A stretch of DNA of 64,000 bases from Patescibacteria group bacterium (GTDB taxonomy: Bacteria > Patescibacteriota > Microgenomatia > UBA10105 > UBA927): NCBI GenBank assembly GCA_038062895.1, contig JBBTWJ010000005.1, forward strand, positions 67,715 to 131,714, given 5' to 3'. The notes below the pieces were generated by a model. The model searched no databases. It saw nothing but the letters and a program-made list of their open reading frames with translations, and was not told the origin of the DNA. Shown in pieces: positions 27,323-62,542 of this stretch (the stretch's first letter is position 1; each line of letters opens with the position of its first letter). The position numbers and the translations under genes were made by a program.

Positions 27323-27396
27323 CTTGACAGGCCTTAATGGGGTAACTTAATATACTATTATATATAAATGTGTATTAGGAAAGGAGGAAATAATAT

Positions 27397-27483: not shown

Positions 27484-27516
27484 CGGGATTTGAATGTCAG
27501 AGCCTCTCATGCTTCT

Positions 27517-27801: not shown

Positions 27802-27824
27802 GGTTCAAATACTAATTTACATCA

Positions 27825-29537: not shown

Positions 29538-29573
29538 AATATACAGAGAGAATGTCCCGTTAGAAATATATAG

Positions 29574-31298: not shown

Positions 31299-31325
31299 TG
31301 GACTTATTTAAGAGCGTGACGTCTG

Positions 31326-32105: not shown

Positions 32106-32117
32106 ACACATCATCAT

Positions 32118-32399
32118 ATGTTTGTAACATCGGGATCGAGCATGGCCCCGTTGATCGAAACGGGTTCAAAGTTGATTATTGATTGGCACCCAAAGATATT
32201 TAAGTTGGGAGACGTCGTCTTGTTTTTTAGCCACTACAACCGCTTGGTCGCGCATAGAATAGTAGCAGTTGCTCCCTCAGGAACAAAGAAGCATTATTTA
32301 ATCAAGGGGGATAATACGTTCCATGATGATGGATGGTTTGAAGAGGCGCAGCTCGTTGGTAGGGTTCGCAAAATTATCCGGAGGAGAAAAAGCTCTTGA
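32118..32399 (+). CDS. Mini (93 aa) S24/S26 signal-peptidase-like serine peptidase domain protein
   Basis: TSGSSMAPLIETGSKLII (Ser box), GDVVLF, LVAHRIVAV (His box of Ser/His-type SPase), GDNTFHDDGW. Confidence 0.5.
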   Translation: MFVTSGSSMAPLIETGSKLIIDWHPKIFKLGDVVLFFSHYNRLVAHRIVAVAPSGTKKHYLIKGDNTFHDDGWFEEAQLVGRVRKIIRRRKSS

Positions 32400-32433
32400 C
32401 CGAGATCGATTTGAGAGCTGCTGCATAAGCAAA

Positions 32434-33177: not shown

Positions 33178-34049
33178 ACAGGAATAAGAGCCTGATGGGG
33201 AAAATTTCCCTTTAATTGATGTACGGCAATAAGTGTGGATGTTGTTTTTCCGTTTAAATATAAATGATGGTTCGGAAACGCACGTTTGTAATAACTAATA
33301 ATTTGTTGCACAGAAGATTTTTTGGCGCCGAGGAGATTAACAAAGACGATCGTCCGCATCTTGCTTAAACGCGCGAGGGTGTGAATAAATCGCCACCCAA
33401 GTGAGTTCTTCGGTATTTCCGAGTTTACAAAAAGATCTACGATGATTATGTCATACTGTTTTTTTGTGTGTGTGACATACTCCGATGCATCACGGAGTAG
33501 AAGAGTAATTTTTTGAGTCTCCCTCGGAGATAAAAAAAATCGTTTTGTGATTGACACCATGGTCTTTGATATTTCGATCACATCAATGTGAGAGGACGGA
33601 TATTGTTGAATAATAGTTTTTGCAAGAGAGCACCCACCCCCTCCCAGGAGCAAGACGGCCGCATTGTCTGGAATAGATTGTGCCTGTAAAATAATCCGGA
33701 TATTGTCAAAATATGCCCATGTCGATTGTTTGGTAAAAAATATTTTAGAATCGATTGCGTTGCTATTGAATGTTGATAATGATCGATAATTATTAAGTGA
33801 ATGAAATGGTTTGTAATAATCCTTAATTTCATATTGTTTTCCATATTCCATGAATGAATATCTGCGGATCACTATGCCGTATTTGTAGGCAGCAACAACA
33901 CATATGAAGGCCAAGGTAATAAACGATCCGACGATAACGTAGCCAAGTGATCGAGTGAGGTCGTGACCCCATACAGCAAAAATACCGCTATTTCGACGCC
34001 GAATAAGAGCATCAAGCGTTTTACCCCTACATTTATATATGCGATCCAA
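33174..34049 (-). CDS. Membrane-anchored spermidine-synthase-like / class I SAM-dependent methyltransferase-fold protein
   Basis: AVLLLGGGGCSLAKTI...HIDVIEIS...YDIIIVDLF (PABS/Rossmann MTase pattern). N-terminal TM. Confidence 0.5.
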   Translation of the reverse strand: MDRIYKCRGKTLDALIRRRNSGIFAVWGHDLTRSLGYVIVGSFITLAFICVVAAYKYGIVIRRYSFMEYGKQYEIKDYYKPFHSLNNYRSLSTFNSNAIDSKIFFTKQSTWAYFDNIRIILQAQSIPDNAAVLLLGGGGCSLAKTIIQQYPSSHIDVIEISKTMVSITKRFFLSPRETQKITLLLRDASEYVTHTKKQYDIIIVDLFVNSEIPKNSLGWRFIHTLARLSKMRTIVFVNLLGAKKSSVQQIISYYKRAFPNHHLYLNGKTTSTLIAVHQLKGNFPHQALIPV

Positions 34050-34081
34050 AATATTGGCACGATGGGCATCATATTGTCTTA

Positions 34082-34804
34082 TTATGTTTTTCGGTGCAAA
34101 TAATTTTTGAGTACTGTATGAGAACTATTAATTTTAATAATTGTTCCTTTATGCATCCAAATAATTTTTTGGGTGTGTTTTCGAATGGTTTCGAGATTGT
34201 GAGACACAACAACCAGAGTCAATGTATGCGAAATGATTTTTTGTAGTGCTTTTTTTAATTTTGTTTGAAAGTTTATATCTCCTGCTTGTAACCCTTCGTC
34301 TAAGATCAGAACATCGGGGTTCGTATATACAGAAATAGCAAATCCCAACCGCAGTTTCATCCCTTGTGAATAGGTAAACAGCGGAGCATCGATAAAGTTG
34401 TCAATATCTGCAAAGGCGATTATGCGTTTGAGTTTTTCGTCAATTTCTCGCCTTTTCATCCCCAAGAGCAAGCCGTTAAGGTATACATTCTGTTCGCCTG
34501 TTAACTCCGGATGGAAGCCGGCCTCGAGATCAATAAGGGACACGACTTGGCCATGAGTTTTTACGGTACCGGAGGTCGGCGTGGTGATACCAGCGATGAT
34601 TTTGAGCAGCGTGGTCTTCCCCGATCCGTTGGAGCCGATGATGCCTACCCGCTCCCCCTTGCGGATGGTGAGATTTACATTGTTGAGTGCCCAAAATTCT
34701 TCGTCTTTCCCTTTAGCAAGCCGTTCCATCAGTGTCGGCTTTTCATGGTGGATGGTATACTTTTTACTTACGCCACTTAGTTTAATGGCTATTTGGTTAT
34801 TCAT
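34082..34804 (-). CDS. ABC transporter ATP-binding protein, polysaccharide-export (Wzt/TagH) type
   Basis: Walker A GIIGSNGSGKTTLL. Signature LSGGQ-like FTYSQGMKLRLGFA. Walker B ILILDEGL. Confidence 0.85.
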   Translation of the reverse strand: MNNQIAIKLSGVSKKYTIHHEKPTLMERLAKGKDEEFWALNNVNLTIRKGERVGIIGSNGSGKTTLLKIIAGITTPTSGTVKTHGQVVSLIDLEAGFHPELTGEQNVYLNGLLLGMKRREIDEKLKRIIAFADIDNFIDAPLFTYSQGMKLRLGFAISVYTNPDVLILDEGLQAGDINFQTKLKKALQKIISHTLTLVVVSHNLETIRKHTQKIIWMHKGTIIKINSSHTVLKNYLHRKT

Positions 34805-34824
34805 AATTCACGAATAGACACGAA

Positions 34825-35223
34825 TCACTCGCGAATAGAGCGCGAATTGTTAATGATACGTTTATATTCGAGCCTGGGACGACGGAAGTTTACCAAAATA
34901 GCTAGGGGCAGATTTGTTTCTACGAGATATGCCAGAGCCTGCTTGAAAAATTTAGGACTATATGCCACTTGAGCCTTCGTTTCTAGAATGATCTGATTTT
35001 CGACAATGAAATCAAGAATATACTTGCCTATCGGCTCTTCTTTGTAGGTGAGGGCGACGGAGATTTCCCGTTTATACGCGATTTTTTGATTATCGAATTC
35101 TTTTGCAATGGCTCGTTGATAGTATTTTTCTAACAAAGAGGACCCGAGTTCGTTGTGGACGGCAAACAACGCACCCATGATTTTATATGATAGTTCTGGT
35201 AAGACGATAGGCTTGTCAGTCAT
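34825..35223 (-). CDS. GxxExxY family protein
   Basis: 132 aa. YKIMGALFAVHNELGSSLLEKYYQRAI pattern (GxxExxY). Commonly inserted in polysaccharide loci. Confidence 0.65.
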   Translation of the reverse strand: MTDKPIVLPELSYKIMGALFAVHNELGSSLLEKYYQRAIAKEFDNQKIAYKREISVALTYKEEPIGKYILDFIVENQIILETKAQVAYSPKFFKQALAYLVETNLPLAILVNFRRPRLEYKRIINNSRSIRE

Positions 35224-36079
35224 ATTTGATTATTTCGATATGCGATGTGTGCCATGGTTCCCATTGCATGAACAGGTTGCCGTGTTTTAAATCATTGATT
35301 TGTTTATTCGTGCACGCGGGGTAGTTGGAACCGATGTCTCTGTTTGGGATGCAGAGCCTATCGAATTTTTTAAGAAATTTTAATTCGTTTTTCTCGGTAT
35401 ATACAAAAAGAAATGATGGAACCGGCGTATGTTTATTTAGTTCTAACAGACCCAGTATGAGCATGCTGTTTCTTTCCCGGCCGCCGGATGATCCGTTTCC
35501 CCCGCGGCTGGCGACTTTTTGATCGTCTTGCTCCCAAACAAAGATGTTGTCATACGGGTTGCGCCAATCAATCCAATTGAGCGGTTCCGGCAAGCAGTAA
35601 TACCGTTCCCTGTCGATCTGAACGCGGTTTTGAAAAAGCTTTATGTGATTGCGGTGTTTGGCAAGAATTGCGCGTTTGTATCGCGGTTCCAGTTCTCGCT
35701 CAATTATAAAGTCATCTATTGTTTCATATTTTTTACTTTGTTGCCAAACAGGGCGGTATCGTTCAAGCCACGTAGCAAACAGATCGTTTCCTTCTCTCTG
35801 GCCAAACTCCTCAAAGAACAGGGAATACAGGAGCTTCCGGTATTTGCTCACCATCGGCTTTTTGGTTTTTTTGACGTATTCTTTTCTGTTTCTTAACTCC
35901 CATTTCAGCGGGTCGATAATGACGGTAATCGTATACGGGTTTTTATCCTGCAGTGCCGCGGCGATCTCTCGGTGCGTGCGGAACAGTGCGTTGGACCAGG
36001 AAATGTTTTCAAAAAGTATTGGGTCGAAATCCTTTTGGAGTGCGGACGGATTGATTTGGATGGTTTGTAGGACATTCAT
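35216..36079 (-). CDS. Hypothetical protein (287 aa), 8-nt overlap with the GxxExxY gene
   Basis: ORF only. No motif recognised. Confidence 0.4.
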   Translation of the reverse strand: MNVLQTIQINPSALQKDFDPILFENISWSNALFRTHREIAAALQDKNPYTITVIIDPLKWELRNRKEYVKKTKKPMVSKYRKLLYSLFFEEFGQREGNDLFATWLERYRPVWQQSKKYETIDDFIIERELEPRYKRAILAKHRNHIKLFQNRVQIDRERYYCLPEPLNWIDWRNPYDNIFVWEQDDQKVASRGGNGSSGGRERNSMLILGLLELNKHTPVPSFLFVYTEKNELKFLKKFDRLCIPNRDIGSNYPACTNKQINDLKHGNLFMQWEPWHTSHIEIIKYD

Positions 36080-49661: not shown

Positions 49662-49951
49662 TACCCCATGTCCGACTCTCCCTCGACTGCGCTCGGGATG
49701 AAGCACATGCGGGATGTCCCGATTACATGGGAAGAGGTTGCGCCATAGTTTTCAATCACGTGGCCCGCCTTCGTCCCTCAACTAGGCTCGGGACTACGGA
49801 CGGGTGAAAGAAGAAGTGGCTCCGTAACATAAGAATGTACGGAGTAAACGCCGTAAAAGAAGGTACGAGAAGTACGAAAGGTACGGGAAGCCCGGCGGGT
49901 GAGCTAATCATTAAATACTGCCAATAGGAAGCGCTTGATTGTGGCTTAATT

Positions 49952-51049: not shown

Positions 51050-51405
51050 AAGAACGGCTCGTGGGACAGGGAATTTTTGTCGCCGGCTCTTTCCTCCTCC
51101 AGCGGGATCTCGAGAGCATCACCCAAAACGATACAACGGCGGCCGAACTTTTTCTCTACAACCCCCGCCTCCTCATCGCCATGCCCGACTCTCCTTCGAC
51201 TCTCTCGTCGATAAGAGCGCGATCGCTCAGGACCATGGCCCCTCGATTTCGCTCGGGACTTCGCATGCGGGATGTGCCGATCACGTGGCCCGCCTTCGTC
51301 CCTCGACTAGGCTCGGGACTACGGACGGGTGAAAGAAGAAGTGGCACCATAGGGGCAAATACTACTCCCCGCGGAGCGGGATCCACGATGCTGTATTTCC
51401 GATAA
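51016..51405 (+). pseudogene. Degenerate duplicate of the 3' end of the 47934-49661 gene
   Basis: ERLVGQGIFVAGSFLLQRDL...AELFLYNPRLLIAMPDS...MRDVPITW parallels the C-terminus of the 575-aa protein. Followed by a near-identical ~67-nt segment (51287-51353 vs 49757-49825). Confidence 0.45.
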
Positions 51406-52806: not shown

Positions 52807-53055
52807 ATGAACATTCATCATTTCACTGTCGTCTTTCAGAAAGAACCGGAGGGGGGCTATACCGCTATCGTTCCGGCGCTTCCCGGATGCGTGACATGGG
52901 GAGAGACAGTGGAAGTGGCTAAGACAGCAGCTCGGGAGGCTATCGAATCGTATCTCGGAAGTCTTGCAAAAGACAACGAAGATACCCCAAGTGATATAAG
53001 CTTTGTGTCAACCATTGATGTTTCTTCGTCTCTCATCCCCCACGCATATGCCTAA
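52807..53055 (+). CDS. hicB: HicB-family antitoxin
   Basis: FTVVFQKEPEGGYTAIVPALPGCVTWGETVEVA. Confidence 0.7.
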   Translation: MNIHHFTVVFQKEPEGGYTAIVPALPGCVTWGETVEVAKTAAREAIESYLGSLAKDNEDTPSDISFVSTIDVSSSLIPHAYA

Positions 53056-53269
53056 ATTGCCGGCCATCCGGCCGCGGGAGCTCGTCGCGAAACTGAAAAA
53101 ACTGGGATTTATCGAGCATCATCAGGTAGGAAGTCACCTTACTATGAAAAACCCAATCACAGGAAGCCGCGCAGTAGTTCCCATGCATCTCAAAGATGTG
53201 AAAAAGGGAACATTAAGCGCATTGCTGCGGGAAGCGCGCGTTGAAAGAGATGAATTTTTGGGCGCTTGA
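53048..53269 (+). CDS. hicA: HicA-family mRNA interferase toxin (start at internal Met MPKLPAIRPRE)
   Basis: RPRELVAKLKKLGFIEHHQVGSHLTMKNP...VPMH. The ORF-track start at 53003 overlaps hicB. Confidence 0.6.
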   Translation: MPKLPAIRPRELVAKLKKLGFIEHHQVGSHLTMKNPITGSRAVVPMHLKDVKKGTLSALLREARVERDEFLGA

Positions 53270-53275
53270 ATACCT

Positions 53276-53689
53276 ATGCTACCACGCAAGAATCGACTCC
53301 CCTCCCCTGAAATCAAATCCATTATGCGCGCCGGGTGGAGGACGAATGGCGATGGGGTCTCCCTTATATATAGGAAGCGTATTGATTCCGGGAATCCTCC
53401 GGATTCCCGGAATCTGAAGTTCAGCCGGTTTGCGTTCGTCGTTCCAGTAAGTGTCGATAAACGCGCGGTGGGGAGAAACCGCTTGAAACGGCTAGCCCGC
53501 GAATCGGTGCGCTTGGCTCTCTCCCATCTCGCGCCCGGATGGGATGGAATTTTTATGGTGCGGAAGGGATTGGGTGAGGAGTTTGGTGTGGTGGATGGGA
53601 AAGTGCGGGAGCTTCTTGGTCGGGCGGGAATGCTTAACGAATCAATAATGACACAGAATAAGACTGGATCCCCGCCTTCGCGGGGATGA
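53276..53689 (+). CDS. rnpA: Ribonuclease P protein component
   Basis: LPRKNRLPSPEIKSIMRAG start. Conserved position between rpmH and yidD. Confidence 0.75.
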   Translation: MLPRKNRLPSPEIKSIMRAGWRTNGDGVSLIYRKRIDSGNPPDSRNLKFSRFAFVVPVSVDKRAVGRNRLKRLARESVRLALSHLAPGWDGIFMVRKGLGEEFGVVDGKVRELLGRAGMLNESIMTQNKTGSPPSRG

Positions 53690-53699: not shown

Positions 53700-53969
53700 A
53701 TGAAAACAATACTTCTTTACGCCATCCGTTTCTACCAGCGGTATCTGTCGTTTGATACGGGGATCCTCAAATTTCTCTTTTTGGCCCATTCGACTCGTTT
53801 CACTCGCTCAGGGCATGTTGAGAAAATCTGTCGATTTTCTCCAACATGTAGCGAGTACATGTATCAGGCTGTCGATCGCTATGGTATAATCCATGGGTTG
53901 TGGCTCGGGGTCAAGCGGATAGTACGATGTCACCCATGGAGCGCGGGGGGAAGCGATCCTGTAAAATAA
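53700..53969 (+). CDS. yidD: Membrane protein insertion efficiency factor YidD
   Basis: CRFSPTCSEYMYQAVDRYG. Confidence 0.85.
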   Translation: MKTILLYAIRFYQRYLSFDTGILKFLFLAHSTRFTRSGHVEKICRFSPTCSEYMYQAVDRYGIIHGLWLGVKRIVRCHPWSAGGSDPVK

Positions 53970-53970
53970 A

Positions 53971-54070
53971 ATTATCCAATTCTCAAATTATCCAATAGTC
54001 AAATAATCCAATAGAACGCAAAAATATTTATTGGATAATTGGATAATTAGTTGATTGGATAATTGGATAA
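53971..54070. repeat. Array of seven TTATCCAAT/ATTGGATAA 9-mers (three direct, four inverted as two tandem pairs) between yidD and yidC
   Basis: Copies at 53973, 53988, 54004 (TAATCCAAT), 54030, 54038, 54054 and 54062, read directly. Confidence 0.7.
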
Positions 54071-54075
54071 TTGTT

Positions 54076-54915
54076 ATGACTAATCCGAATCTTTGGAACC
54101 AATTGTTGATTTGGCCCATAGTAAATGTACTTGTGGCATTGTATAAATTCTTTGAATGGCTCCATGTGCCGGGCCCTCTGGGATTTGCCATCATTGGGTT
54201 GACCATTGCCATCCGCCTCCTCCTTTATCCCCTCATGCAAGCGCAGCTCAAAAGCGCCAAAAAGATGTCAAACCTCAAGCCGCACCTTGACGCCCTCAAC
54301 GCCAAACACAAAGACGATAAGAAAAAATTACAACAAGCACAATTGGATCTCTACAAAGAGCACGGCGTCAATCCCGCGGCCGGGTGTCTCCCCCTCCTTA
54401 TCCAGATGCCGGTCTTGATCGCACTCTATAATGTTTTTTATCAGGTATTGGGAAACGGGAATCTCACCACCCTCATGACGGAAATCAATGCGATCCTGTA
54501 CACACCGTTTATCAAATTGACGCAGCTTGACCTTACATTTTTCGGCGTCAATCTGGGGCTTAAGCCGGAGGCATGGGCTACGCAGGGATGGTGGTTGCTT
54601 TCAATCCCCATCATCACCGGCCTCTTACAGTTTTGGCAGAGCAAGTTGATGCTGCCGGTAAGTCAGCCTTCAGCTGTCAGCTCTCAGCCGTCAGCTAAAA
54701 ATAAATTGAAAACAGGTAATGAAAAAACGGAAGAGAAGAAGGAGGATACGATGGGAGATATGCAGAAGCAGATGGCCATGATCACGCCTATCATGTTTGG
54801 GTTTTTTGCTTTCCAGTTTCCCTTGGGTTTATCGCTCTACTGGAACGTATTCGGACTTTTTGGTATTATGCAACAACTCGCGGTAAACCGCGAAGCGGCA
54901 AATCCTAAATCCTAA
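54076..54915 (+). CDS. yidC: Membrane protein insertase YidC (short form)
   Basis: YidC/Oxa1 core with PVLIALYNVF. Start moved to MTNPNLW because the ORF-track start lies inside the repeat array. Confidence 0.85.
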   Translation: MTNPNLWNQLLIWPIVNVLVALYKFFEWLHVPGPLGFAIIGLTIAIRLLLYPLMQAQLKSAKKMSNLKPHLDALNAKHKDDKKKLQQAQLDLYKEHGVNPAAGCLPLLIQMPVLIALYNVFYQVLGNGNLTTLMTEINAILYTPFIKLTQLDLTFFGVNLGLKPEAWATQGWWLLSIPIITGLLQFWQSKLMLPVSQPSAVSSQPSAKNKLKTGNEKTEEKKEDTMGDMQKQMAMITPIMFGFFAFQFPLGLSLYWNVFGLFGIMQQLAVNREAANPKS

Positions 54916-54974
54916 GCACAAAATCCTAAACAATTTCAAAATTCAAATATTTAAAGCTCAAAACTGTTTAGAAT

Positions 54975-55433
54975 TTGATGTATATGGAACCTATTGATCA
55001 AGTCAAACAAATTACGGAAGATTTACTGAAACGACTCGAAGTGGTCGGGACGGTGGCCGTGGACTTGGATGAAACCGGCGCGTACCAAGTGCAGATCGAC
55101 ACAGAAGAAACCGGACTCCTCATCGGCTTTCATGGACGGACACTCGAAAGCTTTCAGATACTTCTTTCTATCATCGTTTCCAAAAAACTTGAATCCTGGG
55201 TGAAGGTGTACGTAAACGTGGGCGACTATCGGCAGAAACGGGAAGAGACGCTTATGCATATGGCCCAACGGGCTGCCGAGCGGGCGTTAGCTTTTGGCAA
55301 ACCGGTTGAGCTTGCCAACCTCTCCGCCTCCGAACGGCGCGTGATCCATATGACGTTGGGCGGCGATGAGCGGATTGCGACGGAATCCGTAGGGGAAGGA
55401 ATGAATAGGACGCTTATAGTAAAGCCACGATGA
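54975..55433 (+). CDS. jag: Jag/KhpB-like RNA-binding protein (Jag_N, KH and R3H domains)
   Basis: R3H-like ERRVIHMTL at the C-terminus. Conserved position after yidC. Confidence 0.7.
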   Translation: MMYMEPIDQVKQITEDLLKRLEVVGTVAVDLDETGAYQVQIDTEETGLLIGFHGRTLESFQILLSIIVSKKLESWVKVYVNVGDYRQKREETLMHMAQRAAERALAFGKPVELANLSASERRVIHMTLGGDERIATESVGEGMNRTLIVKPR

Positions 55434-55553
55434 AATCCTAAATCCTAATTTCTAAATCCTAAACAATATCAAAATCCAAAATACTAATGTTCCAAACGTT
55501 TTGAATTTGAAATTTAAGACATTTGAATTTGTTTAGAATTTAGGATTTAGTGC

Positions 55554-56132
55554 TTGGTGCTTACGAATATGCATGTTGGTATCTTCGGCGGAGTCTTTAA
55601 CCCCCCACATCTCGGGCACCTCATGATCGCCCAGCAGATCCTGGACTTTACAGATATAGAGGAAGTTTGGTTTCTGCCCAATTACGGACAGCACCCTCCC
55701 AAACCCCACGTGGCTCCTGTTGTGGATCGCTTGGCGATGACGAAATTCCTTGAAAGGCCGAAGATGAAATTGTCTACTCTAGAGGTTGATCATAAACTCG
55801 ACGGGAACACCATCAATCTCCTCCCCCATCTTCCGTCCAACAACACCTACACATTTATCATGGGTGCGGATTGGCTGCCGGGATTTACCACGAAGTGGGG
55901 GCACTGGGAAGAACTTCTCAATCGGATTCCGTTTCTTATATTCCCCCGTAGTGGCTATGCCAATGCGCCAATGCAAAAAAATATGACCCTCCTCACTCAC
56001 GAGTCGTTGGTGATTTCAAATCTATCGTCAACAAAAATTCGTGAACGGCTGCGGCAAGGACTATCCATCGATGCATTTGTCCCACAGGCAGTTTCTACAT
56101 ATACAAAGAAGCATGGGTTGTATAAAAGTTGA
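55554..56132 (+). CDS. nadD: Nicotinate-nucleotide adenylyltransferase
   Basis: GIFGGVFNPPHLGHL. Confidence 0.8.
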   Translation: MVLTNMHVGIFGGVFNPPHLGHLMIAQQILDFTDIEEVWFLPNYGQHPPKPHVAPVVDRLAMTKFLERPKMKLSTLEVDHKLDGNTINLLPHLPSNNTYTFIMGADWLPGFTTKWGHWEELLNRIPFLIFPRSGYANAPMQKNMTLLTHESLVISNLSSTKIRERLRQGLSIDAFVPQAVSTYTKKHGLYKS

Positions 56133-56166
56133 CATATAAATAAAAGCTTTTTATACTGCGTTAAGT

Positions 56167-56379
56167 ATGCCTAAGATTATTGAATCAAATCCTCAAGTAT
56201 TAGGAGGTAAACCGGTTATCAAAGGAACACGCATTCCCGTCGCACGGATTCTCGCGTTACTTGGCATGGATTATACACTCACGGACATACGGAACGAGTT
56301 TCCCCAACTATCTCTACTCACGAAAGAAAATCTTTCTGATATTCTTACCTATTACCAGTCAAAACTTCAGTATAGATAA
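56167..56379 (+). CDS. DUF433-family protein (putative antitoxin), second copy
   Basis: VLGGKPVIKGTRIPVARILALL. Confidence 0.7.
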   Translation: MPKIIESNPQVLGGKPVIKGTRIPVARILALLGMDYTLTDIRNEFPQLSLLTKENLSDILTYYQSKLQYR

Positions 56380-56420
56380 CTATAAAACTTTTCAAAACAA
56401 GAAAAAATAAGAAATTTCGT

Positions 56421-56738
56421 TTGCTTCTCGACGCTGCCTTTGCAAGACCACGTACTTTTGCTCGACTGTCTAAGAAGGCAAATGTCACACATGTCGTTTT
56501 TGATTATAATCTTCCACCTCAGTGTTCTGATGAAGAAATCTATCAGTTGGCTGTGAAGGAAGATAGATTTGTCGTTACCATCAATTACCAGGACTTCAGG
56601 AAGCTTGTCAAAAAGGGAAAGCCGGGAATTATATCGATACCCTCCGAGCTTTCTAATCAAGAAATAGATCAATTGTTATGTCGTTTCCTATTGATGAAAA
56701 ATCCTGGTGATTATGTGGGGTCTGCAATAAAAGTATGA
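56421..56738 (+). CDS. DUF5615-like (PIN-like) putative toxin partner of DUF433; TTG start
   Basis: LLLDAAFARP N-terminus. About 105 aa. Confidence 0.55.
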   Translation: MLLDAAFARPRTFARLSKKANVTHVVFDYNLPPQCSDEEIYQLAVKEDRFVVTINYQDFRKLVKKGKPGIISIPSELSNQEIDQLLCRFLLMKNPGDYVGSAIKV

Positions 56739-57799
56739 TGTATTGGGACAAGACTACTATTGAGCGGATCCGAAGAGGATATTATACTGCCGCCTACTTC
56801 AACCGGACCAAATATATTCTCGAGCAGGAACACGATGAGACGATCGTGACGATGCAGATATTTCAACGGAACGAAAACAGTGTTTTGTGTGGCGTGGATG
56901 AAATGGTTGAACTTCTTCGCATCGGAACGGGAACGTGGCGTGGCAATCGATGGATGGGAAAACGACAAACACTGAAAGTGACCGCGCTCTCCGACGGGGA
57001 TATAGTCCAGAGTAAAGAGCCGGTGATGCACATTACTGGTCCGTATGTATATTTCGCTCACCTCGAGTCGTTGTATCTCGGAATTTTTGCACGGCGAACG
57101 ATGGTGGCGACGAACACGCGCCGGGTGGTAGAAGCGGCAAAGGGAAAACCCGTTTTTTTCTTTGCCGATCGATTTGATGATTTTAGCAATCAGGAAGGCG
57201 ATGGGTATGCGGCGCGCATAGGCGGCGCTGCGGGTGTGTGTACCCAGGCTCATGCCTCGCGATGGAACGGAATCCCGGTCGGCACCATTCCCCATGCACT
57301 TATTGCCGTTGGCGGCGGCGATACGACAAAGGCGACGCAACGGTTTGCCAACCACATAAAAGACGTGAACGTGGTAGCCCTTGTCGACTTTGATAATGAT
57401 TGCGTGGGAACAGCGCTTGCGGTCGCGCGGGCTCTCGGAAAAAAATTATGGGGAGTACGTATAGATACGGCAGAGAATATAACGGATGTTTCCGCGTCTT
57501 CTCCTGGTGTCAATCCAACGCTTGTCATGCGTGTCCGCCAGACGCTTAACGACGCGGGGTTTACTCATGTTAAAATACTCGTGTCCGGCGGATTTACTGA
57601 AAAAAAGGTACGGATGTTTGAAAGAGAAAAGACACCGGTCGATGGGTACGGCGTGGGTTCAGCACTCGTCCATGGGAGCAATGACTTTACCGCTGACGTG
57701 GTGAAAGTGAATGGGAAGCAGCAGGCTAAGGCTGGAAGAATGTACATGGCAAACAGACGAATGAAAGGAATAAAAAACTTTTTAAAGGAGGAAGTATGA
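56735..57799 (+). CDS. pncB: Nicotinate phosphoribosyltransferase-like (type II PRTase)
   Basis: RGYYTAAYFNRTKYIL N-terminus. Flanked by nadD, pncA-like and nadE genes forming a salvage pathway. Confidence 0.6.
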   Translation: MMYWDKTTIERIRRGYYTAAYFNRTKYILEQEHDETIVTMQIFQRNENSVLCGVDEMVELLRIGTGTWRGNRWMGKRQTLKVTALSDGDIVQSKEPVMHITGPYVYFAHLESLYLGIFARRTMVATNTRRVVEAAKGKPVFFFADRFDDFSNQEGDGYAARIGGAAGVCTQAHASRWNGIPVGTIPHALIAVGGGDTTKATQRFANHIKDVNVVALVDFDNDCVGTALAVARALGKKLWGVRIDTAENITDVSASSPGVNPTLVMRVRQTLNDAGFTHVKILVSGGFTEKKVRMFEREKTPVDGYGVGSALVHGSNDFTADVVKVNGKQQAKAGRMYMANRRMKGIKNFLKEEV

Positions 57800-58335
57800 A
57801 GAAAGGAAAATATGCAGCGATCGTCATCGATATGCTGGAAGATTTTGTTTATGGAGCACTGAAAAATGATCGGGCGAAACGAATCATTCCCAATATCGAG
57901 AAACTTCTCGCAGACGCAAGAAAGAAGGGTTGGCTCGTAGTATATGCCAACGACGCACATTTGTCGGGAGATCCTGAAGAAAGAGTGTGGGGCGCTCACG
58001 CGCTTGCCGGGAGTCCCGGCGCTCAAATAATAGAAGCATTAGCTTCTAAAAAGGGAGACATAGTGCTTGGGAAGCGAACCTATAGCGCGTTTCATGAAAC
58101 AGGGCTTGATTTACTCCTTCGGCAACACGATATCAAAACAGTGATACTTGTTGGGCAACATACGCATATTTGCGTAAGGCATACAAGCGCTGATGCGTTT
58201 GCAAATAATTATTCGATTGTCGTTCCGGATGATTGCGTTGAGTCCTTTAGCGATGAGGATCATCATGGGGGTCTGGCTTATCTGAAAATGTGCTACGGAG
58301 CCACGATCACATCTGTGAAGAAACTTTTGAAGTAA
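57796..58335 (+). CDS. pncA: Isochorismatase-family cysteine hydrolase, probable nicotinamidase
   Basis: AIVIDMLEDF...YANDAH...VILVGQHTHICVRHT. Confidence 0.7.
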   Translation: MKKGKYAAIVIDMLEDFVYGALKNDRAKRIIPNIEKLLADARKKGWLVVYANDAHLSGDPEERVWGAHALAGSPGAQIIEALASKKGDIVLGKRTYSAFHETGLDLLLRQHDIKTVILVGQHTHICVRHTSADAFANNYSIVVPDDCVESFSDEDHHGGLAYLKMCYGATITSVKKLLK

Positions 58336-59129
58336 TGAGTATGAAGTCTGTCGACATAAAGCAAGTTTATCGCAATGCCATTGATTTTCTTGGCCAGTCG
58401 ATGAAGCATGCCGGATTCCGCTCTGCAGTTATTGCCCTGTCCGGCGGGGTGGATTCGAGTGTAAGCGTGGTACTCTCGGTTCGGGCGATTGGAAAAAATA
58501 ATGTCTATCCCCTACTTCTTCCCTACGGTAACTTGAATTTTCAAGGTGTTAGTGATGCGCAACTTGTCATAAAAACTCTTGGGATACCTCCAGCCCACGT
58601 GAGAGATATAAATATTCAACCACTTGTTGACCCGATCACTGCTCTAGATCCCGATCTGCCTGCCGGCAGGCAGGTGGATCGCCTCCGGCGCGGCAACACC
58701 ATGGCGCGTGTGCGGATGATCCTGCTATACGATCTCGCTAAAAAAAACAATGCCTTGGTCGTGGGGACGGAAAACAAGACGGAACATTTACTAGGGTACT
58801 ATACGCGCTTCGGCGATGAGGCGAGCGATATAGAACCATTACGGAATTTGTATAAAACAGACGTTCGCCGTCTAGCCCAAGCGTTGGGGTTGCCCCAGAC
58901 GATTATTACGAAAGCACCGACGGCCGGACTTTGGGACGGGCAGACGGATGAAGGAGAGTTTGGATTTACCTACGAAGAGGCGGACCGGGTTCTTGCGTTG
59001 ATTGTAGATGAGAAGAAGTCCATTGATGAAGTTATTGCAAAAGGATATGATCGATCCACCGTGGAGAAGGTGGTGAAGAGAATGAATGATAATGATTTCA
59101 AGCACCGTCTTCCCTTCGTTCCTTCATGA
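58290..59129 (+). CDS. nadE: NH3-dependent NAD+ synthetase
   Basis: ALSGGVDSSVSVVL PP-loop. Confidence 0.85.
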   Translation: MLRSHDHICEETFEVMSMKSVDIKQVYRNAIDFLGQSMKHAGFRSAVIALSGGVDSSVSVVLSVRAIGKNNVYPLLLPYGNLNFQGVSDAQLVIKTLGIPPAHVRDINIQPLVDPITALDPDLPAGRQVDRLRRGNTMARVRMILLYDLAKKNNALVVGTENKTEHLLGYYTRFGDEASDIEPLRNLYKTDVRRLAQALGLPQTIITKAPTAGLWDGQTDEGEFGFTYEEADRVLALIVDEKKSIDEVIAKGYDRSTVEKVVKRMNDNDFKHRLPFVPS

Positions 59130-60535
59130 AATGGCATCAACGATTTTTTTGGCTTCTGCTTTTGTTTCTTCCTACACAACTAGGCTACCATTTTTGGCCC
59201 CAGTGGGCGGGGGTGCTCGGAAGGAGAGTAGATTACCTCGCCCCAACCATTTATCTTACAGATATTCTTATTTTTTTGATCATTGTTGCCTGGGTTGTTC
59301 CTCGCGTTGTTCAAATGGTGCGAGGAAATCCTAAATCCAAATTTCTAAATCCTAAACAAATCCAAAAGTTCAAAATTCAAATATTACAAACAAAATATCT
59401 GTGGATGATGGCAGGAGTGGTGTTTGCGATTGTTAATATTTTTGTCGCTACAAATAAGCCCATCGCCATATACAAATGGATAAAGGTGAGTGAGTTTGTA
59501 ATGCTGGGATGGTATATCGTGCGGACGAGGCCTACGCTATCAGCTATCATCACTCCCCTATCGGTTGGCATCCTGTACTCATCGATTCTTGCGATCATCC
59601 AATTTATTCTGCAGCACTCCGTCGGGGGCCCACTTTGGTGGCTAGGAGAACGGACGTTTGGCGTCGATACGCCGGGGATAGCGCGTTACGATTTCAACTT
59701 TCAACTTTTAACTTTAAACTTTCAACTTTTTGGCCTCCGGCCGCATGCTACGTTCCCCCACCCGAATGTGTTGGGAGGATTTTTGGCAGTAGTCTTGCCA
59801 TTACTTATTTATAATCTACAAATCTACAAATCTACAAATCTACAAATGAATGATTCATTAAAAAAAATGTTGCAATGGGGGTTGGGTTTGACAATTTCAA
59901 TTGGAGTTGTTGCTTTGATTCTGACGTTTAGCCGGAGCGCGGTAGTAGTGGGGGCAATCGCAATTGCTTTGACCATTGCGAGAATTAGGAATGATGCCCG
60001 CCCGGAGCGAGGCCGAAGGGAATTACGGATTATGAATAGTAAACGCTTTGTAGTTACAGCCGTCATTGGATTATTAATTATACTTTTGGCTTCATACTTC
60101 ATGATTCATAATTCAACAGAGGAAAGTGTTGTTGTTCGTGGACAACTCAACGCAGCGGCAATAAAGCTTTGGCAGACCGCTCCCCTCTTCGGCGTGGGAC
60201 TCGGAAATTTTCTTGTGCGGCTGCCGGAGACACTCCCCACCCGGACGATTTACTTTCTCCAGCCAGTCCATAATATATATTTGCTTATACTGTCAGAGAC
60301 GGGAGTCGTCGGGTTTTTACCGGTTCTTTTGTTGTTAGTAAAGATTTTTCTCTGGACAATAAACAATAAGCAGAAAGCACGCGAATCGTTTGTTTATTGC
60401 TTATTGCTTACTGCCCTTCTTGTTTTGGGTCTCGTCGACCACTACCTCCTTACGCTTCAGCAAGGACAGTTGCTGCTCACTGTATTTACAGGATTAAGTC
60501 TAACATTGTTACAAAATAACAAAATAACAAAATAA
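59126..60535 (+). CDS. O-antigen ligase (Wzy_C)-like polytopic membrane protein carrying several in-frame simple-repeat insertions
   Basis: HNIYLLILSETGVVG Wzy_C motif. Low-complexity inserts encoded by tandem repeats at 59324-59395, 59690-59730 and 59808-59850. Confidence 0.6.
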   Translation: MKWHQRFFWLLLLFLPTQLGYHFWPQWAGVLGRRVDYLAPTIYLTDILIFLIIVAWVVPRVVQMVRGNPKSKFLNPKQIQKFKIQILQTKYLWMMAGVVFAIVNIFVATNKPIAIYKWIKVSEFVMLGWYIVRTRPTLSAIITPLSVGILYSSILAIIQFILQHSVGGPLWWLGERTFGVDTPGIARYDFNFQLLTLNFQLFGLRPHATFPHPNVLGGFLAVVLPLLIYNLQIYKSTNLQMNDSLKKMLQWGLGLTISIGVVALILTFSRSAVVVGAIAIALTIARIRNDARPERGRRELRIMNSKRFVVTAVIGLLIILLASYFMIHNSTEESVVVRGQLNAAAIKLWQTAPLFGVGLGNFLVRLPETLPTRTIYFLQPVHNIYLLILSETGVVGFLPVLLLLVKIFLWTINNKQKARESFVYCLLLTALLVLGLVDHYLLTLQQGQLLLTVFTGLSLTLLQNNKITK

Positions 60536-60554
60536 CAAAATAACAAAATAACAA

Positions 60555-61979
60555 ATGGCGAATTGCGGTACAATGGGGAACATGACTTCTACCAAATGGA
60601 ACGTCGCATGGAATACGGGGAGCCAGCTTCTCGGAAAATTAGTCGGGAGTGGCGCGATGTTTTTGGTCAGCATCCTGGTTGCGCGGGGCTTTGGCGCTCA
60701 AGGATTTGGTGACTTCACGAAGATCATCACTTTCGTTGCATTTTTTTATCTCCTGGTTGATTTTGGACTCAATGCGGTGTATCTGCAGAGGCAGACAGCA
60801 CCTGCCCGCAATGCTATGCAAAGCGTTGTAGGCGGGGACAGCAGCGGCCCGCCTACTGGCGGGGCAGGCAAAGCGGATTGGGGAACGCTTTTTAGCATGA
60901 GGCTTCTGGGCGGCATACTCCTCATGTTTTTTGTGGTCGCAATTTTAGCTTTTCTTCCTCACGGCACGGATCAGGGATATACGGGACTGGTCCGGCTTGG
61001 CATCATTCTCTTCTCCCCCACTATTCTCATCCAAGGGTTGATCGTATCAGCTAATGCTATATTTCAGAAACACCTGCGATATGACTTGGCAAGTTTTGCT
61101 CTTATTGCTGGATATATTGTAACCGTGTTCCTTGTTGCTGGCTCTGTATTTGGACTTTCTTCCCGTGTAGGCGTTTTGGGTGTGACAACTTCCCTCCTTC
61201 TTGGTTTGGGTGTCACGGGGTTTGTTTCCCTTTTTTTTGTGCGTCGCATCGAACAATTTGCTCACATTTCTTTTGATAGGAAGACCGCCACCATGTTATT
61301 TATGACTGCTCTCCCCTTAGGGATCACTCTGCTTTTTAATCAAGTGTACTTCCGGATCGACAGTTTTGTTTTGACGTTGACACGCAGCACGACTGAAGTT
61401 GGCCTGTATGGCCTGGCGTATAAAGTGTTTGAATTGCCTCTCGTGATCCCCACATTTTTTATGAACAGCGTGTACCCGCTACTTCTTGCAAAGCAAATGA
61501 CGAAAGACGTAGGACGTAGGACGTATGAAACCAAGAAATTATTAAAAAAATCCGGCACCATCTTATGTCTTATGTCCGTAGTCTTATCTCTCACGTTTTG
61601 GTATGCTGCTCCCCTCCTTATGTACATCCGTCCGGAGTTTGCTCCTAGTATTCCTCTTTTGAGAATCCTTACGCTTGGCTTGCCGTTCTTTTTTCTCTCA
61701 AGTCTCGTGATGTGGGCACTTATTGCTCTTGGCAAACAGATAGTACTCGCGGGTATCTATGGAAGCCTGATGATGGTCACAGTACTATTAGATATTCTCA
61801 TCATTCCAACCCACGGGGCTATCGGGGCAGCGTGGATCACGGTGGGGTCGGAAGGAGTTGTGTTGTTGATATCAGTTTTGTATCTTCGGAGGGTGTTCCA
61901 TTATCCCACGGCTGTGTCGAGCGAATCTACAAATTACAAATCTACAAATATGCAAATGAATGATAGAATGCATAAATAA
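60555..61979 (+). CDS. MOP-superfamily polysaccharide/lipid-II flippase-like (Wzx/MurJ-type) membrane protein
   Basis: About 14 TM helices. MOP flippase-like N-terminus. C-terminal tail encoded by an ATCTACAA-type repeat. Confidence 0.6.
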   Translation: MANCGTMGNMTSTKWNVAWNTGSQLLGKLVGSGAMFLVSILVARGFGAQGFGDFTKIITFVAFFYLLVDFGLNAVYLQRQTAPARNAMQSVVGGDSSGPPTGGAGKADWGTLFSMRLLGGILLMFFVVAILAFLPHGTDQGYTGLVRLGIILFSPTILIQGLIVSANAIFQKHLRYDLASFALIAGYIVTVFLVAGSVFGLSSRVGVLGVTTSLLLGLGVTGFVSLFFVRRIEQFAHISFDRKTATMLFMTALPLGITLLFNQVYFRIDSFVLTLTRSTTEVGLYGLAYKVFELPLVIPTFFMNSVYPLLLAKQMTKDVGRRTYETKKLLKKSGTILCLMSVVLSLTFWYAAPLLMYIRPEFAPSIPLLRILTLGLPFFFLSSLVMWALIALGKQIVLAGIYGSLMMVTVLLDILIIPTHGAIGAAWITVGSEGVVLLISVLYLRRVFHYPTAVSSESTNYKSTNMQMNDRMHK

Positions 61980-62041
61980 ATTAATTAATCAGTAACGAAG
62001 TTGTTAATTTGCAGATTTGAATATTTGCAGATTTGTAGATT

Positions 62042-62542
62042 ATGAAATTAATTGTACATACAGATGGGGGAGCGAGGGGGAACCCGGGACCGGCGGCAGT
62101 GGGGGTGGTGATAGAAAGACAGGAGGAGTCAAAAGTCGAAAGTCCCGCCGCCGAGGCTTTGGCGGGCAGGCAAAAGTCGAAAGTACTTGCTGCGGAGTTT
62201 GGGAAACGGATAGGGGAGACGACGAATAATGTAGCGGAATACACCGCGGTAGTGGAAGCACTGACCTACTTAAAAATTAAAACTTTAAACTTTAAACTTG
62301 AAAGTGGAGAAGACCTTCATATTCAGTTTTTACTTGATTCGAAACTTGTGGTCGAACAACTCAATGGAAATTTTAAGGTGAAGGATGGCAGACTCCGGGA
62401 ACTTATGATGAAGGTGAAAGTTTTGGAGCAGGAGGTTGGTCCGCCTGGCGGCGAGACAAGGGGAGTGGTGACGTATGCGTATGTGCCGAGGGAGCAGAAT
62501 AAACGAGCGGATTATTTCGTCAATAAAGCACTAGATGCGTGA
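62042..62542 (+). CDS. rnhA: Ribonuclease HI
   Basis: VHTDGGARGNPGPAAVGVVI, NNVAEYTAVVEAL, VPREQNKRADYFVNKALD. Contains two in-frame repeat-derived insertions. Confidence 0.8.
   Translation: MKLIVHTDGGARGNPGPAAVGVVIERQEESKVESPAAEALAGRQKSKVLAAEFGKRIGETTNNVAEYTAVVEALTYLKIKTLNFKLESGEDLHIQFLLDSKLVVEQLNGNFKVKDGRLRELMMKVKVLEQEVGPPGGETRGVVTYAYVPREQNKRADYFVNKALDA

Follow-up and report, generated by a model that had tools for sequence, protein, structure and literature searches.

Tandem-armed palindromic repeats resembling rRNA intervening sequences in gene junctions and coding sequences of a Microgenomates gene cluster

Results

Repeats within a conserved co-directional gene cluster

We analyzed a 64,000-nt stretch of contig JBBTWJ010000005.1 from a Patescibacteria group bacterium (assembly GCA_038062895.1), hereafter the window, whose nearest relatives with a name are Candidatus Gottesmanbacteria, of the Microgenomates within the Candidate Phyla Radiation (CPR). 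An earlier note, made from the sequence alone, had described a family of short repeats in this DNA that occur both as hairpins between genes and in-frame inside coding sequences. These repeats lie in a co-directional gene block that comprises rnpA, yidD, yidC, jag/KhpB, nadD, a DUF433/DUF5615 pair, a NAPRT-like gene, isochorismatase, nadE, a gene for an O-antigen-ligase-like protein with a Wzy_C domain (hereafter Wzy_C), a Polysacc_synt flippase gene and the RNase H gene, rnhA. The order rnpA-yidD-yidC-jag-wzy-flippase-rnhA is kept in ~80 Microgenomates species representatives. The window derives from groundwater metagenome DNA of Hainich (well H41), and its Wzy_C protein is 100% identical in the NCBI metagenome-assembled genome GCA_964357735.1 and on an ENA contig of 224 kb. 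In three further assemblies of this population the window DNA is identical and free of indels, and the repeats are therefore no assembly artefact.

Tandem Repeats Finder (TRF), which was used to call tandem arrays throughout, identified 17 loci with a period of 7, 8, 14 or 16 nt in the window. Fifteen of these fall between 53.9 and 62.3 kb, and the remaining two together make up a single palindrome at 8087-8192. No period-7 or period-8 array arose in mononucleotide shuffles of the window. A 27-nt degenerate pattern for the AAATCCT core matches the window four times, compared to 0.01 matches expected. Every repeat and peptide that the earlier note had listed was recovered to within a few bases. 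Members that it did not list are found at 53969-54073, 54662-54696, 60020-60114, 60354-60416, 61506-61576 and 8087-8192, and there are additional GC-rich mini-palindromes at 58656-58673, 60799-60868, 62144-62170 and 62441-62461. The open reading frames (ORFs) of the block are uninterrupted and cover their Pfam domains in full, in agreement with the claim that the frames stay open. A search of Rfam returned zero families at gathering score and only generic miRNA-hairpin matches below threshold.

The repeats are lineage-specific insertions with a period-7 bias

As a source of orthologous proteins and spacers we used 1.44 Mb of related loci from ~80 species, with block shuffles of the loci as controls. 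Labels such as L004 and L048 denote loci of related species, metagenome contigs or viral contigs, while P0003 and the like denote orthologous proteins. The comparison loci were picked via Wzy_C, by which array-rich genes may be slightly favored, and their ORF and gene calls are crude.

In alignments of 55-79 orthologues, array-encoded residues have a mean column occupancy of 0.53-0.75 versus 0.91-0.96 for other residues, and many species have short loops at the array positions. Orthologues in the ~80 related species either have no such segment or show other units in its place, and the segments are not shared by distant homologues. These low-occupancy columns mark the repeat segments as lineage-specific insertions, as had been proposed. 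Disrupting frameshifts are rare: a frame split was seen in 2 of 80 orthologues for Wzy and in 1 of 57 for the flippase, and that of L048 is not at an array. Units at orthologous spots can differ by one base (TTTCAAC vs TTTCGAC; ACAAAATA vs ACAAAGTA in L004). The presence of differing units at the same sites in related species indicates that these sites are permissive hot spots with sequence turnover.

Non-redundant arrays in the 1.44 Mb number 359 for period 7, 148 for period 8, 142 for period 9 and 61 for period 6; block shuffles gave 28, 27, 34 and 6 rows, respectively, compared to 382 actual rows for period 7. The units are AT-rich, with a mean of 30% GC, and diverse: 277 canonical units are found among 460 arrays, 184 of them singletons, while some recur in many species. 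By the crude ORF call, 74% of period-7 arrays are within long ORFs. An inverted partner within 200 nt accompanies 34% of intergenic arrays, 13% of coding arrays and 1% of controls. Array density ranges from 0 to 17 per 10 kb among lineages. By far the densest host is Wzy_C, with 189 arrays in about seven loops of 79 orthologues; over 31 loci, its first kb holds 48 arrays versus 1-3 per kb in the flanks.

Family A is dispersed across junctions, genes and phyla

At least two repeat families, A and G, are dispersed at non-orthologous sites, and family A is found across phyla. The three direct family-A copies in the window share 69-79% identity over 70 nt and a non-repetitive core, CTAAACAA(A/T)(T/A)TCAAA, and the type AAATCCT..CTAAACAA..TTCAAA describes four arms. 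A hidden Markov model (HMM) built from copies outside the window alone recognized these four arms at E = 1e-10 to 1e-13 and none of the other window arrays, including AATCTACA and ATTGGATA; the claim of a single repeat family is thus not sustained. An nhmmer profile identified 14 family-A arms at different junctions in nine Gottesmanbacteria species. These arms were located between yidD and yidC (L012, L014, L022 and L030), in the flippase tail and at the start of rnhA (L022), in Wzy loop 1 (the window, L004, L007 and L066) and at an unrelated site (L082). In the heptamer, position 7 is particular to the species (AAATCCT, AAATCCG or AAATCCC), and the autocorrelation of the family has its maximum at lag 7.

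The 27-nt pattern also matched at least 120 metagenome contigs, none near yidC-wzy genes among the matches listed. Nearly all of the matches listed share a common design, in which a left arm of (AAATCCG / AAATTCG / AAGCACG / AATATCG)n AAACAAATTCAAA..CAAAAC is followed by a loop and the inverse arm. Among them are ~75 clear palindromes with a median length of 151 nt, arms of ~61 nt and a loop of ~24 nt, and 84 of 126 metagenome arms have a partner arm that scores above the 99th percentile of controls. Palindromes were detected by soft gapped scoring; ungapped or strict scoring failed, as the arms are out of register. Family A has the small size, multiple copies, terminal inverted repeats and lack of a transposase of MITEs (transposable elements of the miniature inverted-repeat type).

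Several copies reside in-frame in unrelated genes. The valine-tRNA ligase (ValRS) of a Candidatus Tagabacteria locus (L125) contains a half-element (RNPKQIQNSKFKIPKPK) in a variable linker that is missing or differently filled in other Parcubacteria. Two contigs, L105 and L089, harbor a complete 50-residue element in-frame in the same linker of non-ribosomal peptide synthetase (NRPS) adenylation domains. Further in-frame copies are present in PMT_2 glycosyltransferases (L180 and L111) and in a 6-phosphogluconate-dehydrogenase-like gene (L130). A family-A contig of 61% GC (L086) encodes a DUF6288 protein that has Planctomycetota and Verrucomicrobiota as named relatives. In IMG/VR, 42 contigs bear 88 family-A arms, and one phage contig (L238) combines a portal gene and a major capsid gene with seven arms. 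BLAST of the canonical element against plasmid and phage collections gave zero matches, although the low-complexity filter may have masked the query. Open frames are enriched: 59% of family-A unit instances are stop-free in all six frames versus 15-27% of random AT-rich heptamers, and 41% of whole elements have at least one open frame versus 10% of shuffles. The earlier comparison to Rickettsia palindromic elements (RPEs) is apt for this dispersed, palindromic family, which occupies non-orthologous sites and lies in-frame in unrelated genes.

Two further features of these copies were observed. The L089 and L105 elements, on two different contigs, sit just before a LAY(V/I)IYTSGSTGKPKG motif, and this shared site could reflect common ancestry or a preferred site. 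In addition, a small GC-rich stem-loop (stem of 5-7 bp, loop of 2-4 nt) directly precedes many family-A elements, as in L089, L105, L110, L118, L119, L129 and L193, and sometimes follows them; it may represent a target structure or a terminator, or belong to the element itself.

Family A and PF05635 link the repeats to rRNA intervening sequences

Two of the metagenome family-A matches are inside 23S rRNA genes. In L087, the element replaces the helix tip at positions ~1205-1226 of the large subunit rRNA model, which corresponds to helix 45, the classical site of rRNA intervening sequences (IVS). This 23S rRNA gene (6010-9519) also contains a group I intron (6689-6929), and a 5S rRNA and a tRNA are nearby. 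In L118, a 189-nt family-A copy stands in place of 12 model positions within a helix of domain V. The window itself contains no rRNA gene, and its copies are all intergenic or in coding sequence, with none at 23S helix 25 or 45.

The IVS have been known since 1990, yet their origin and the role of the PF05635 (23S_rRNA_IVP) ORF that they can carry are still puzzling (PMC4990558). The Coxiella burnetii IVS has terminal inverted repeats, an ORF of the PF05635 family and 2-3 tandem GACAGAT units that vary between strains, and RNase III cuts it at the first repeat (PMC4990558). Excision from the transcript by RNase III is also known for the Salmonella IVS. A 2024 survey reported many short ORF-less inserts as well as 23S_rRNA_IVP ORFs in CPR rRNA genes and is silent on repeats or palindromes (PMC11270868).

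Our sequence sets contain eight PF05635 genes (L123, L167, L138, L182, L131 and the Gottesmanbacteria L048, L006 and L022), all eight of which lie between inverted arms made of tandem 7- or 9-nt repeats. The arms of L123 belong to family A (E = 3e-11 and 5e-8) and the PF05635 gene occupies the loop. Viral contigs provided five more loci, four of them distinct, and three of these four are flanked by inverted heptamer or octamer arrays. In total, inverted arms of tandem repeats border 11 of the 12 distinct PF05635 genes examined. The PF05635 protein is a four-helix bundle that is related to Avd, the accessory protein of diversity-generating retroelements. The cargo element of L048, L006 and L022 starts where a SurA-like gene has its stop codon; in the genome to which the window belongs, the next ATG comes 1 nt after the SurA-like gene.

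The 9-mer AATACTACC, which flanks the PF05635 gene in Gottesmanbacteria, is also found as an in-frame array encoding NTTN peptides in yidC of related species (sites L004 4024-4068 and L048 11083-11558; yidC proteins of L021 and L022). Its presence in both contexts links the coding arrays to the arms of cargo elements.

Intergenic palindromes fill gene junctions

The intergenic copies in the window (53969-54073, 54900-54977, 55433-55562, 61924-62041 and 8087-8192) are palindromes whose arms are tandem arrays. Each occupies its spacer from the preceding stop codon until at most a few bases before the next start codon, and folds with an energy 2.2 to 5.8 standard deviations below shuffles (z) on at least one strand. 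As extended stem-loops formed from terminal inverted repeats, the window hairpins fold at z of -2.2 to -6.7. In the comparison set, species medians of the block spacers range from -12 to 30 nt.

Between yidD and yidC, the palindrome at 53969-54073 has a 16-mer array of AAATTATCCAATAGTC as its left arm and an 8-mer array of ATTGGATA as its right arm, which stops 2 nt short of the yidC ATG (54076). Its inverted repeat, I2, is 44 nt with 80% complementarity and folds at -30.9 kcal/mol (z -5.8); the orthologous spacer has a median length of 2 nt (46 species).

The two AAATCCT-type elements described earlier were placed at 54900-54977 and 55433-55562. The former, an IVS-like family-A element on the plus strand, combines a complete left arm with a right arm that is truncated and reaches the jag ATG (54978); it is a member of direct-repeat family D2 and scores E=2.5e-13 with the superfamily HMM. 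Its first 16 nt provide the last codons of yidC (NPKS) and the TAA stop, whereby the ancestral tail LAVNREK and its stop, found in L027, L029 and L036, are replaced by LAVNREAANPKS and a stop. The hairpin folds at -21.3 kcal/mol (z -3.3) on the minus strand, and 54895-54980 is the clearest antisense-favored case, with -5 kcal/mol on the plus versus -21 kcal/mol on the minus strand. The latter is a complete family-A palindrome. It begins at the final base of the jag stop codon, fills the jag-nadD spacer and contains two arms of ~60 nt with 7-nt periodicity (HMM E=4.5e-13 for the left and 1.7e-10 for the right arm; autocorrelation maximum at lag 7). The element folds, as had been predicted, into an imperfect hairpin, of 128 nt, with energies of -28.3 kcal/mol (z -3.8) on the plus and -31.5 kcal/mol (z -4.5) on the minus strand.

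The AATCTACA-type palindrome at the flippase-rnhA junction (61924-62041; inverted repeats I12 and I17; z -2.2 and -4.4) is composed of the expected arm at 61924-61957 and its inverse at 62004-62041. The left arm forms the C-terminal tail of the flippase (STNYKSTNMQMND), which ends in NYKSTNMQMNDRMHK and a stop, as reported earlier; the loop holds this stop codon and the right arm abuts the rnhA ATG (62042). The flippase-rnhA spacer is 57-134 nt and entirely palindrome in the window, L004, L005, L048, L011 and L022, where L048 and L011 have the same unit as the window and other units are present in L004, L005 and L022. Spacers of 3-11 nt are found in L027 (3 nt), L015 (5 nt) and L006. The sole similar palindrome outside the flagged region, at 8087-8192, has octamer arms of AACGAATA and ATTCAATT, runs from a PrgI-like gene to the next gene and folds at z -3.3 and -3.1.

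Coding copies occupy variable loops and C-terminal tails

The coding copies, all on the plus strand, are single arms or arm pairs that lie in-frame and stop-free in genes that are intact, at variable loops or C-terminal tails. The earlier note had assigned them to loops of membrane proteins; the loops were borne out, but the hosts are not membrane proteins alone, as RNase H and ValRS carry them as well. A-rich arms encode N/K/Q/P/S-rich peptides and T-rich arms F/L/I-rich peptides, and this polar and hydrophobic translation can explain their tolerance by polytopic membrane proteins. In Wzy_C, A-rich arrays are found at 59326-59395, 59813-59854, 60020-60039, 60354-60384 and 60511-60535, and T-rich arrays at 59692-59729, 60090-60114 and 60386-60416. 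In an AlphaFold model of Wzy_C (mean predicted local distance difference test score, pLDDT, of 65), the segments map to loops between helices, helix ends and a beta-hairpin. The A-rich segments occupy such loops or the tail, while among the three T-rich segments two are in transmembrane (TM) helices and the third is a predicted beta-hairpin; confidence at the array-encoded segments is mostly below the model average.

The three coding copies that had been noted in this gene were recovered at 59326-59395, 59692-59729 and 59813-59847. The first of these is a family-A half-element, a left arm (HMM E=1.2e-11), that encodes GNPKSKFLNPKQIQKFKIQILQ (NPKSKFLNPKQIQKFKIQILQTK) in Wzy_C loop 1, between helices H44-65 and H85-107 (pLDDT of 60 for residues 71-80 and 49 for residues 81-90). 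When threaded in the Wzy frame, both intergenic family-A copies contain two stops each, the first being the stop that terminates yidC, while the Wzy copy contains none. L066 has a whole family-A element in-frame at loop 1, and what appeared to be a reverse-orientation copy in this protein proved to be the right arm of that element. The second, TTTCAAC x5.4 at 59692-59729, encodes DFNFQLLTLNFQLFG (DFNFQLLTLNFQLF) in a periplasmic loop that is modeled as strands 188-194 and 197-203 with low pLDDT, the predicted beta-hairpin. L004 carries TTTCGAC x5.4 at the orthologous spot, and the array is absent from short-loop orthologues. The third consists of a AATCTACA x4.4 array (59813-59847; 100% matches) and AAATGAATGAT, which extends it to 59854; together they encode LQIYKSTNLQMND. 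This segment is 71% identical over 56 nt to the flippase-tail copy (direct repeat D1), and its loop contains AATCTACG in L006 and ATGAGTCCA in L004.

Three further sites were found in Wzy_C. At 60020-60114, inverted heptamer arms of GAATTACGGATTATGAATAG and CTTCATACTTCATGATTCATAATTC (TRF 60091-60115) lie on either side of a TM helix and directly follow a GC-rich stretch (59996-60020; ARPERGRR). Their hairpin is marginal (-21.3 kcal/mol, z only -1.6), and the ELRIM..SYFMIHNS pair also occurs in P0003, P0005, P0007 and P0009. The in-frame palindrome at 60354-60416 (inverted repeat I9; z -4.3 and -6.7) encodes the polar loop TINNKQKA from its A-rich arm and the start of a TM helix, FVYCLLLTA, from its T-rich arm. 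It falls in a hot spot at residues 408-432 where up to 24 species have arrays, with a modeled loop at 414-417 between two helices. Finally, the perfect ACAAAATA octamer array at 60511-60555 (x5.6; 100% matches, score 90) is present as described but not purely intergenic, as had been thought, since it supplies the last eight residues of Wzy_C (LQNNKITK), the stop codon and the entire spacer up to the flippase ATG. The corresponding tail is encoded by ACAAAGTA x2.6 in L004 and contains CGAGAAGTA in L005 and L006.

In yidC, a GTCAGCT x5 array at 54662-54696 encodes SQPSAVSSQPSAK in a variable cytoplasmic linker. The linker is a hot spot (residues 204-229) with arrays in up to 10 species, and the canonical unit ACAGCTG is shared with L006, L010 and L020. 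In the flippase, GACGTAG x2.9 and TCTTATG x2.3 arrays at 61506-61576 form a hairpin with G.U pairs in an in-frame loop (-20.0 kcal/mol, z -2.8 on the plus strand; z -0.7 on the minus strand) that is conserved in L004 and L048. The two insertions proposed for rnhA correspond to arrays at 62127-62184 and 62268-62303. The former, an AAAGTCG array (direct repeat D19), is in a beta-hairpin loop, is split by a GC-rich hairpin and is absent from many orthologues. The latter, ACTTAAA x5.1, encodes KIKTLNFKLE in-frame in a variable linker; L006 has the same unit at this spot, L004 and L048 have AAATCAC and L005 has AATAATCC.

GC-rich mini-palindromes

The window contains 18 GC-rich hairpins versus 5.2 in shuffles. 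In nadE, a perfect 18-nt palindrome identified in this hairpin census, CTGCCTGCCGGCAGGCAG (58656-58673), encodes LPAGRQ in-frame, and the peptide PAG(R/K/E) recurs in arrays of other species' proteins. Two adjacent GC-rich palindromes at 60799-60868 on the plus strand encode PARNAMQSVVGGDSSGPPTGGAG in a flippase loop. They are absent from L048 and L040, and L004 and L005 have AAACAAT arrays at that position. The segment 60802-60836, with GACAG on both sides, defines family G, which occurs once in the window (0 expected) and a second time at a non-orthologous site, in rnhA of L004. The family-G flanks are 5-nt direct repeats, GACAG and AAAGT, from n=2 copies, one of which is inside an array.

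The AAAGTCG array of rnhA is split in the window by a nested 27-nt GC hairpin (62144-62170; SPAAEALAGR) and in L004, at the same point, by a 38-nt family-G palindrome; in L005 it is uninterrupted (AGTCGAA x4.4). A 21-nt mini-hairpin on the plus strand, CCGCCTGGCGGCGAGACAAGG (62441-62461), encodes PPGGETR as another rnhA insertion, which is absent from the other RNase H orthologues inspected (the first 30 rows of a 55-sequence alignment); its DNA was compared with L004, L005, L006, L011 and L022. The loops of metagenome AT-rich elements often contain GC hairpins as well.

An additional GC hairpin, ATCCCCGCCTTCGCGGGGAT, is located at the 3' end of rnpA (53668-53687), where it gives the tail ..NKTGSPPSRG; the opposite strand reads CHPREGGDPV, a peptide type of repeat-derived ORFs in many metagenome proteins.

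Other features of the window

The genes for NAD salvage form an insert within the conserved yidC-jag-wzy cluster that few relatives have and that is devoid of AT-rich arrays. Toxin-antitoxin-like pairs are present at 52807-53269 (HicB/HicA) and, within the NAD-salvage block, at 56167-56738 (DUF433/DUF5615). Small ORFs upstream of the HicAB pair contain a 66-nt direct repeat (49755-49820 and 51280-51345; 98.5-100% identical, 1.5 kb spacing) that has no relation to the heptamer arrays. The dnaN and dnaA genes are on the minus strand at 13172-15844, where the cumulative GC skew turns, indicating a likely origin near 15.9 kb. At ~40 kb from the repeats, these genes (13-16 kb) leave origin proximity unsupported as a cause of repeat clustering. 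Type IV secretion/conjugation-like genes (VirD4/TraG-like, TraG P-loop/VirB4-like and PrgI-like) at 4272-13160 adjoin dnaN/dnaA. A second Wzy_C-domain protein of 958 residues is encoded beside dnaA (15938-18814), in which heptamer arrays are nearly absent, unlike in its 469-residue paralogue. The stretch 18000-36000 has zero period-7/8 arrays and a GC content of 39-44%, compared to about 47-55% elsewhere, and may be a glycosylation or foreign island.

Discussion

Our data show lineage-specific repeat insertions that share the anatomy of IVS, a link to rRNA and PF05635 and an enrichment in open frames. The repeats are probably selfish, non-coding palindromic elements of an IVS/RPE-like kind, present as complete, truncated and single-arm copies together with slippage arrays, and kept where they are harmless. 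We infer mobility itself and a machinery for it; candidate routes of spread would be PF05635-assisted movement, phage-borne transfer and recombination. Once in place, arm units may be renewed through replication slippage and through concerted evolution or correction between the two arms, and short GC-rich palindromes may insert secondarily, also into arrays. Positions would be set by selection rather than targeting. Surviving copies would then be of three types: those between a stop and the next start codon, those that form new C-terminal tails and bring their own stop codon, and in-frame, stop-free loops, in which A-rich arms would give polar N/K/Q/P/S residues and T-rich arms F/L/I residues that can extend TM helices. 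As for IVS stems, RNase III probably cuts the intergenic hairpins in the operon mRNA.

Several observations weigh against this interpretation. We observed zero transposition events and zero presence/absence polymorphisms within a population, and the four assemblies are without indels. Most arrays (277 distinct units among 460) are without detectable dispersed relatives, such that growth in place is possible for them, and the window repeats are concentrated in one 8-kb gene block instead of being spread genome-wide. AT-rich low complexity can also inflate HMM and profile significance. Further, none of the ~75 AT-rich palindromes examined showed a recognizable target-site duplication, tblastn identified no PF05635 homologue in the 64-kb window and no transposase was found there; the cargo-bearing relatives found carry PF05635 and not a transposase.

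The many unique arrays, with their 184 singletons, are fairly accounted for by simple-sequence expansion in place, in which slippage amplifies arbitrary 7-8-mers at tolerant sites, template switching makes the inverted arm and nothing is mobile. The perfect arrays at 59813-59847 and 60511-60555 fit this explanation, as do the one-base unit differences at orthologous sites, which are consistent with concerted evolution in place, and heptanucleotide repeats are reported to be the most abundant class of long simple sequence repeats (SSRs) in many bacteria, for which slippage has been proposed (PMC4692102, PMC4679880). However, the copies of families A and G have non-repetitive cores in common and sit at non-orthologous sites both inside one genome and from one genome to another, family A extends to other phyla, phage and rRNA with a steady element length of ~150 nt, and units with a mean of 30% GC in a genome of 47% GC are not local duplications. 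As an account of the repeats as a whole, in-place expansion is therefore unlikely. Somewhat less likely still is that the palindromes are selected, cis-acting RNA hairpins of the rnpA-to-rnhA operon that serve as RNase III sites, stabilizers, terminators or devices for stop-start translational coupling. They do span from stop to ATG at yidD-yidC, yidC-jag and flippase-rnhA, and to within a few nt at jag-nadD; in six array-rich species the flippase-rnhA palindrome has a right arm that terminates at the ATG, folding gives z < -2 for 38-48% of long spacers, and RNase III cuts IVS stems in rRNA (PMC4990558). By contrast, the spacers of most species are a few nt long and hairpin-free, which indicates that the hairpin is dispensable, and the same sequences are found in coding loops, rRNA and phage. 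Moreover, several window hairpins fold better on the antisense strand, and the plus strand has the lower energy in 33 of 61 long spacers (means of -26.7 and -26.1 kcal/mol). This equal folding of both strands means that the palindromes are symmetrical at the DNA level, and selection on the sense-strand RNA, for which the G.U pairs found on the plus strand only at 61506-61576 had been considered, was rejected.

Units of 7 and 8 nt would shift the frame, and Wzy_C is the densest host, as might be expected of contingency loci in which non-triplet repeats switch Wzy_C and the flippase by slipped-strand mispairing. Yet the four assemblies show zero copy-number differences and frame splits are nearly absent among the orthologues. 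The arrays are also short (2-5 units), often imperfect and several per gene, and are present in RNase H, yidC and ValRS as well. We accordingly rejected phase variation as the main explanation and regard it as highly improbable. An assembly or sequencing artefact of low-complexity DNA is barely credible: short-read metagenome assembly can mis-assemble repeats, but these are identical in three other assemblies with frames preserved, and similar arrays are present in ~80 independently assembled species, including records titled complete chromosome assemblies.

Returning to mobile, IVS/RPE-like palindromic elements as the preferred reading, a broader and decidedly tentative possibility is that IVS-type hairpins with tandem arms of 7-9 nt are one cross-phylum mobile class of CPR bacteria, PVC-like bacteria and the phages of both. 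The PF05635 protein of the cargo form might bind the repeat units and promote spread or maintenance, and the ORF-less copies of ~150 nt might be its MITE-like derivatives. If so, ORF-less copies colonize rRNA helices, gene junctions and protein loops and are a source of new loops and tails, which would answer the long-standing question of the origin of rRNA intervening sequences. Family A occurs in four settings, namely 23S rRNA helices, between genes, in-frame in essential genes (RNase H, ValRS, the yidC tail and Wzy_C) and in phage DNA. Along with the PF05635 genes in the loops of hairpins of like design, this makes the hypothesis that IVS are mobile elements directly testable. It also indicates that IVS-like selfish hairpins colonize protein-coding DNA, and it accounts for odd low-complexity peptides (NPKQIQNS, FRISDFGF, ELRIMNY and LQIYKSTN) in predicted CPR and metagenome proteins; annotators should be warned that such segments are repeat-derived. 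The searchable literature yielded no account of protein-coding genes or junctions with tandem-armed palindromes of the IVS type, or of family A; the same was true of work on CPR tandem or in-frame repeats and on PVC (Planctomycetes-Verrucomicrobia-Chlamydiae) palindromic repeats, and of the sequence strings themselves.

Compared to known systems, the closest anatomical match is the rRNA IVS of Salmonella, Leptospira and Coxiella, which likewise form a long stem-loop from terminal inverted repeats with tandem heptamers in an arm and an optional PF05635/S23p gene in the loop (present in relatives, not in the window copies). In addition, family-A members are found in 23S helix 45 and domain V, and CPR rRNA genes commonly contain short inserts without an ORF (PMC11270868). 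By contrast, the window copies are ORF-less, have far longer (~60 nt), AT-rich arms and reside in spacers and coding genes, where RNase III excision would cut the mRNA. RPEs are palindromes of ~100-150 bp in several families that insert in-frame in unrelated genes without destroying them (PMC10969869), to which the open-frame enrichment, the full in-frame elements in L066 Wzy_C and NRPS and the median length of 151 nt correspond. However, the hosts here are CPR bacteria, PVC-like bacteria and phage, not Rickettsia, the arms have a periodicity of 7-8 nt and there is a link to rRNA IVS and PF05635; given these hosts, we do not class the elements as RPEs. MITEs at gene ends, such as Coxiella QMITE1/2, intragenic ERIC and Correia elements, are also small, non-autonomous, palindromic and multi-copy, and they overlap gene 3' ends and donate C-terminal residues and stops (PMC5896051), which is also the case at the ends of yidC, Wzy_C and the flippase gene in the window. 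The present AT-rich family differs in that the whole element, beyond its termini, is palindromic and no target-site duplication or parent insertion sequence was found.

The long heptanucleotide SSRs, which include the short tandemly repeated repetitive (STRR) sequences of cyanobacteria, GGGAATC of Xanthomonas and TAACTGA of Beggiatoa, share the dominance of period 7, a location mainly between co-directional genes, variation in length and sequence at the same site among related species and some inverted pairs (PMC4692102, PMC4679880). They are, however, reported to be under-represented in coding regions, while 74% of the period-7 arrays here are in long ORFs, and they have one favored unit where many coexist here. 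Phase-variable SSR loci of Haemophilus and Neisseria also place non-triplet tandem repeats in surface-polysaccharide genes, but the arrays described here show zero copy-number polymorphism, are short, degenerate and several per gene, and nearly always leave the frame open. Repetitive extragenic palindromic (REP) sequences and bacterial interspersed mosaic elements (BIMEs) are GC-rich, 20-40 nt long and have a GTAG or CGTC head, unlike the AT-rich arms of ~60 nt and ~20-30% GC; the separate GC-rich mini-palindromes of the window are of similar size to them. Thus, the repeats behave as RPEs and gene-end MITEs do, they match rRNA IVS in anatomy and in one sequence family, and their period-7 bias is that of the heptanucleotide SSR excess.

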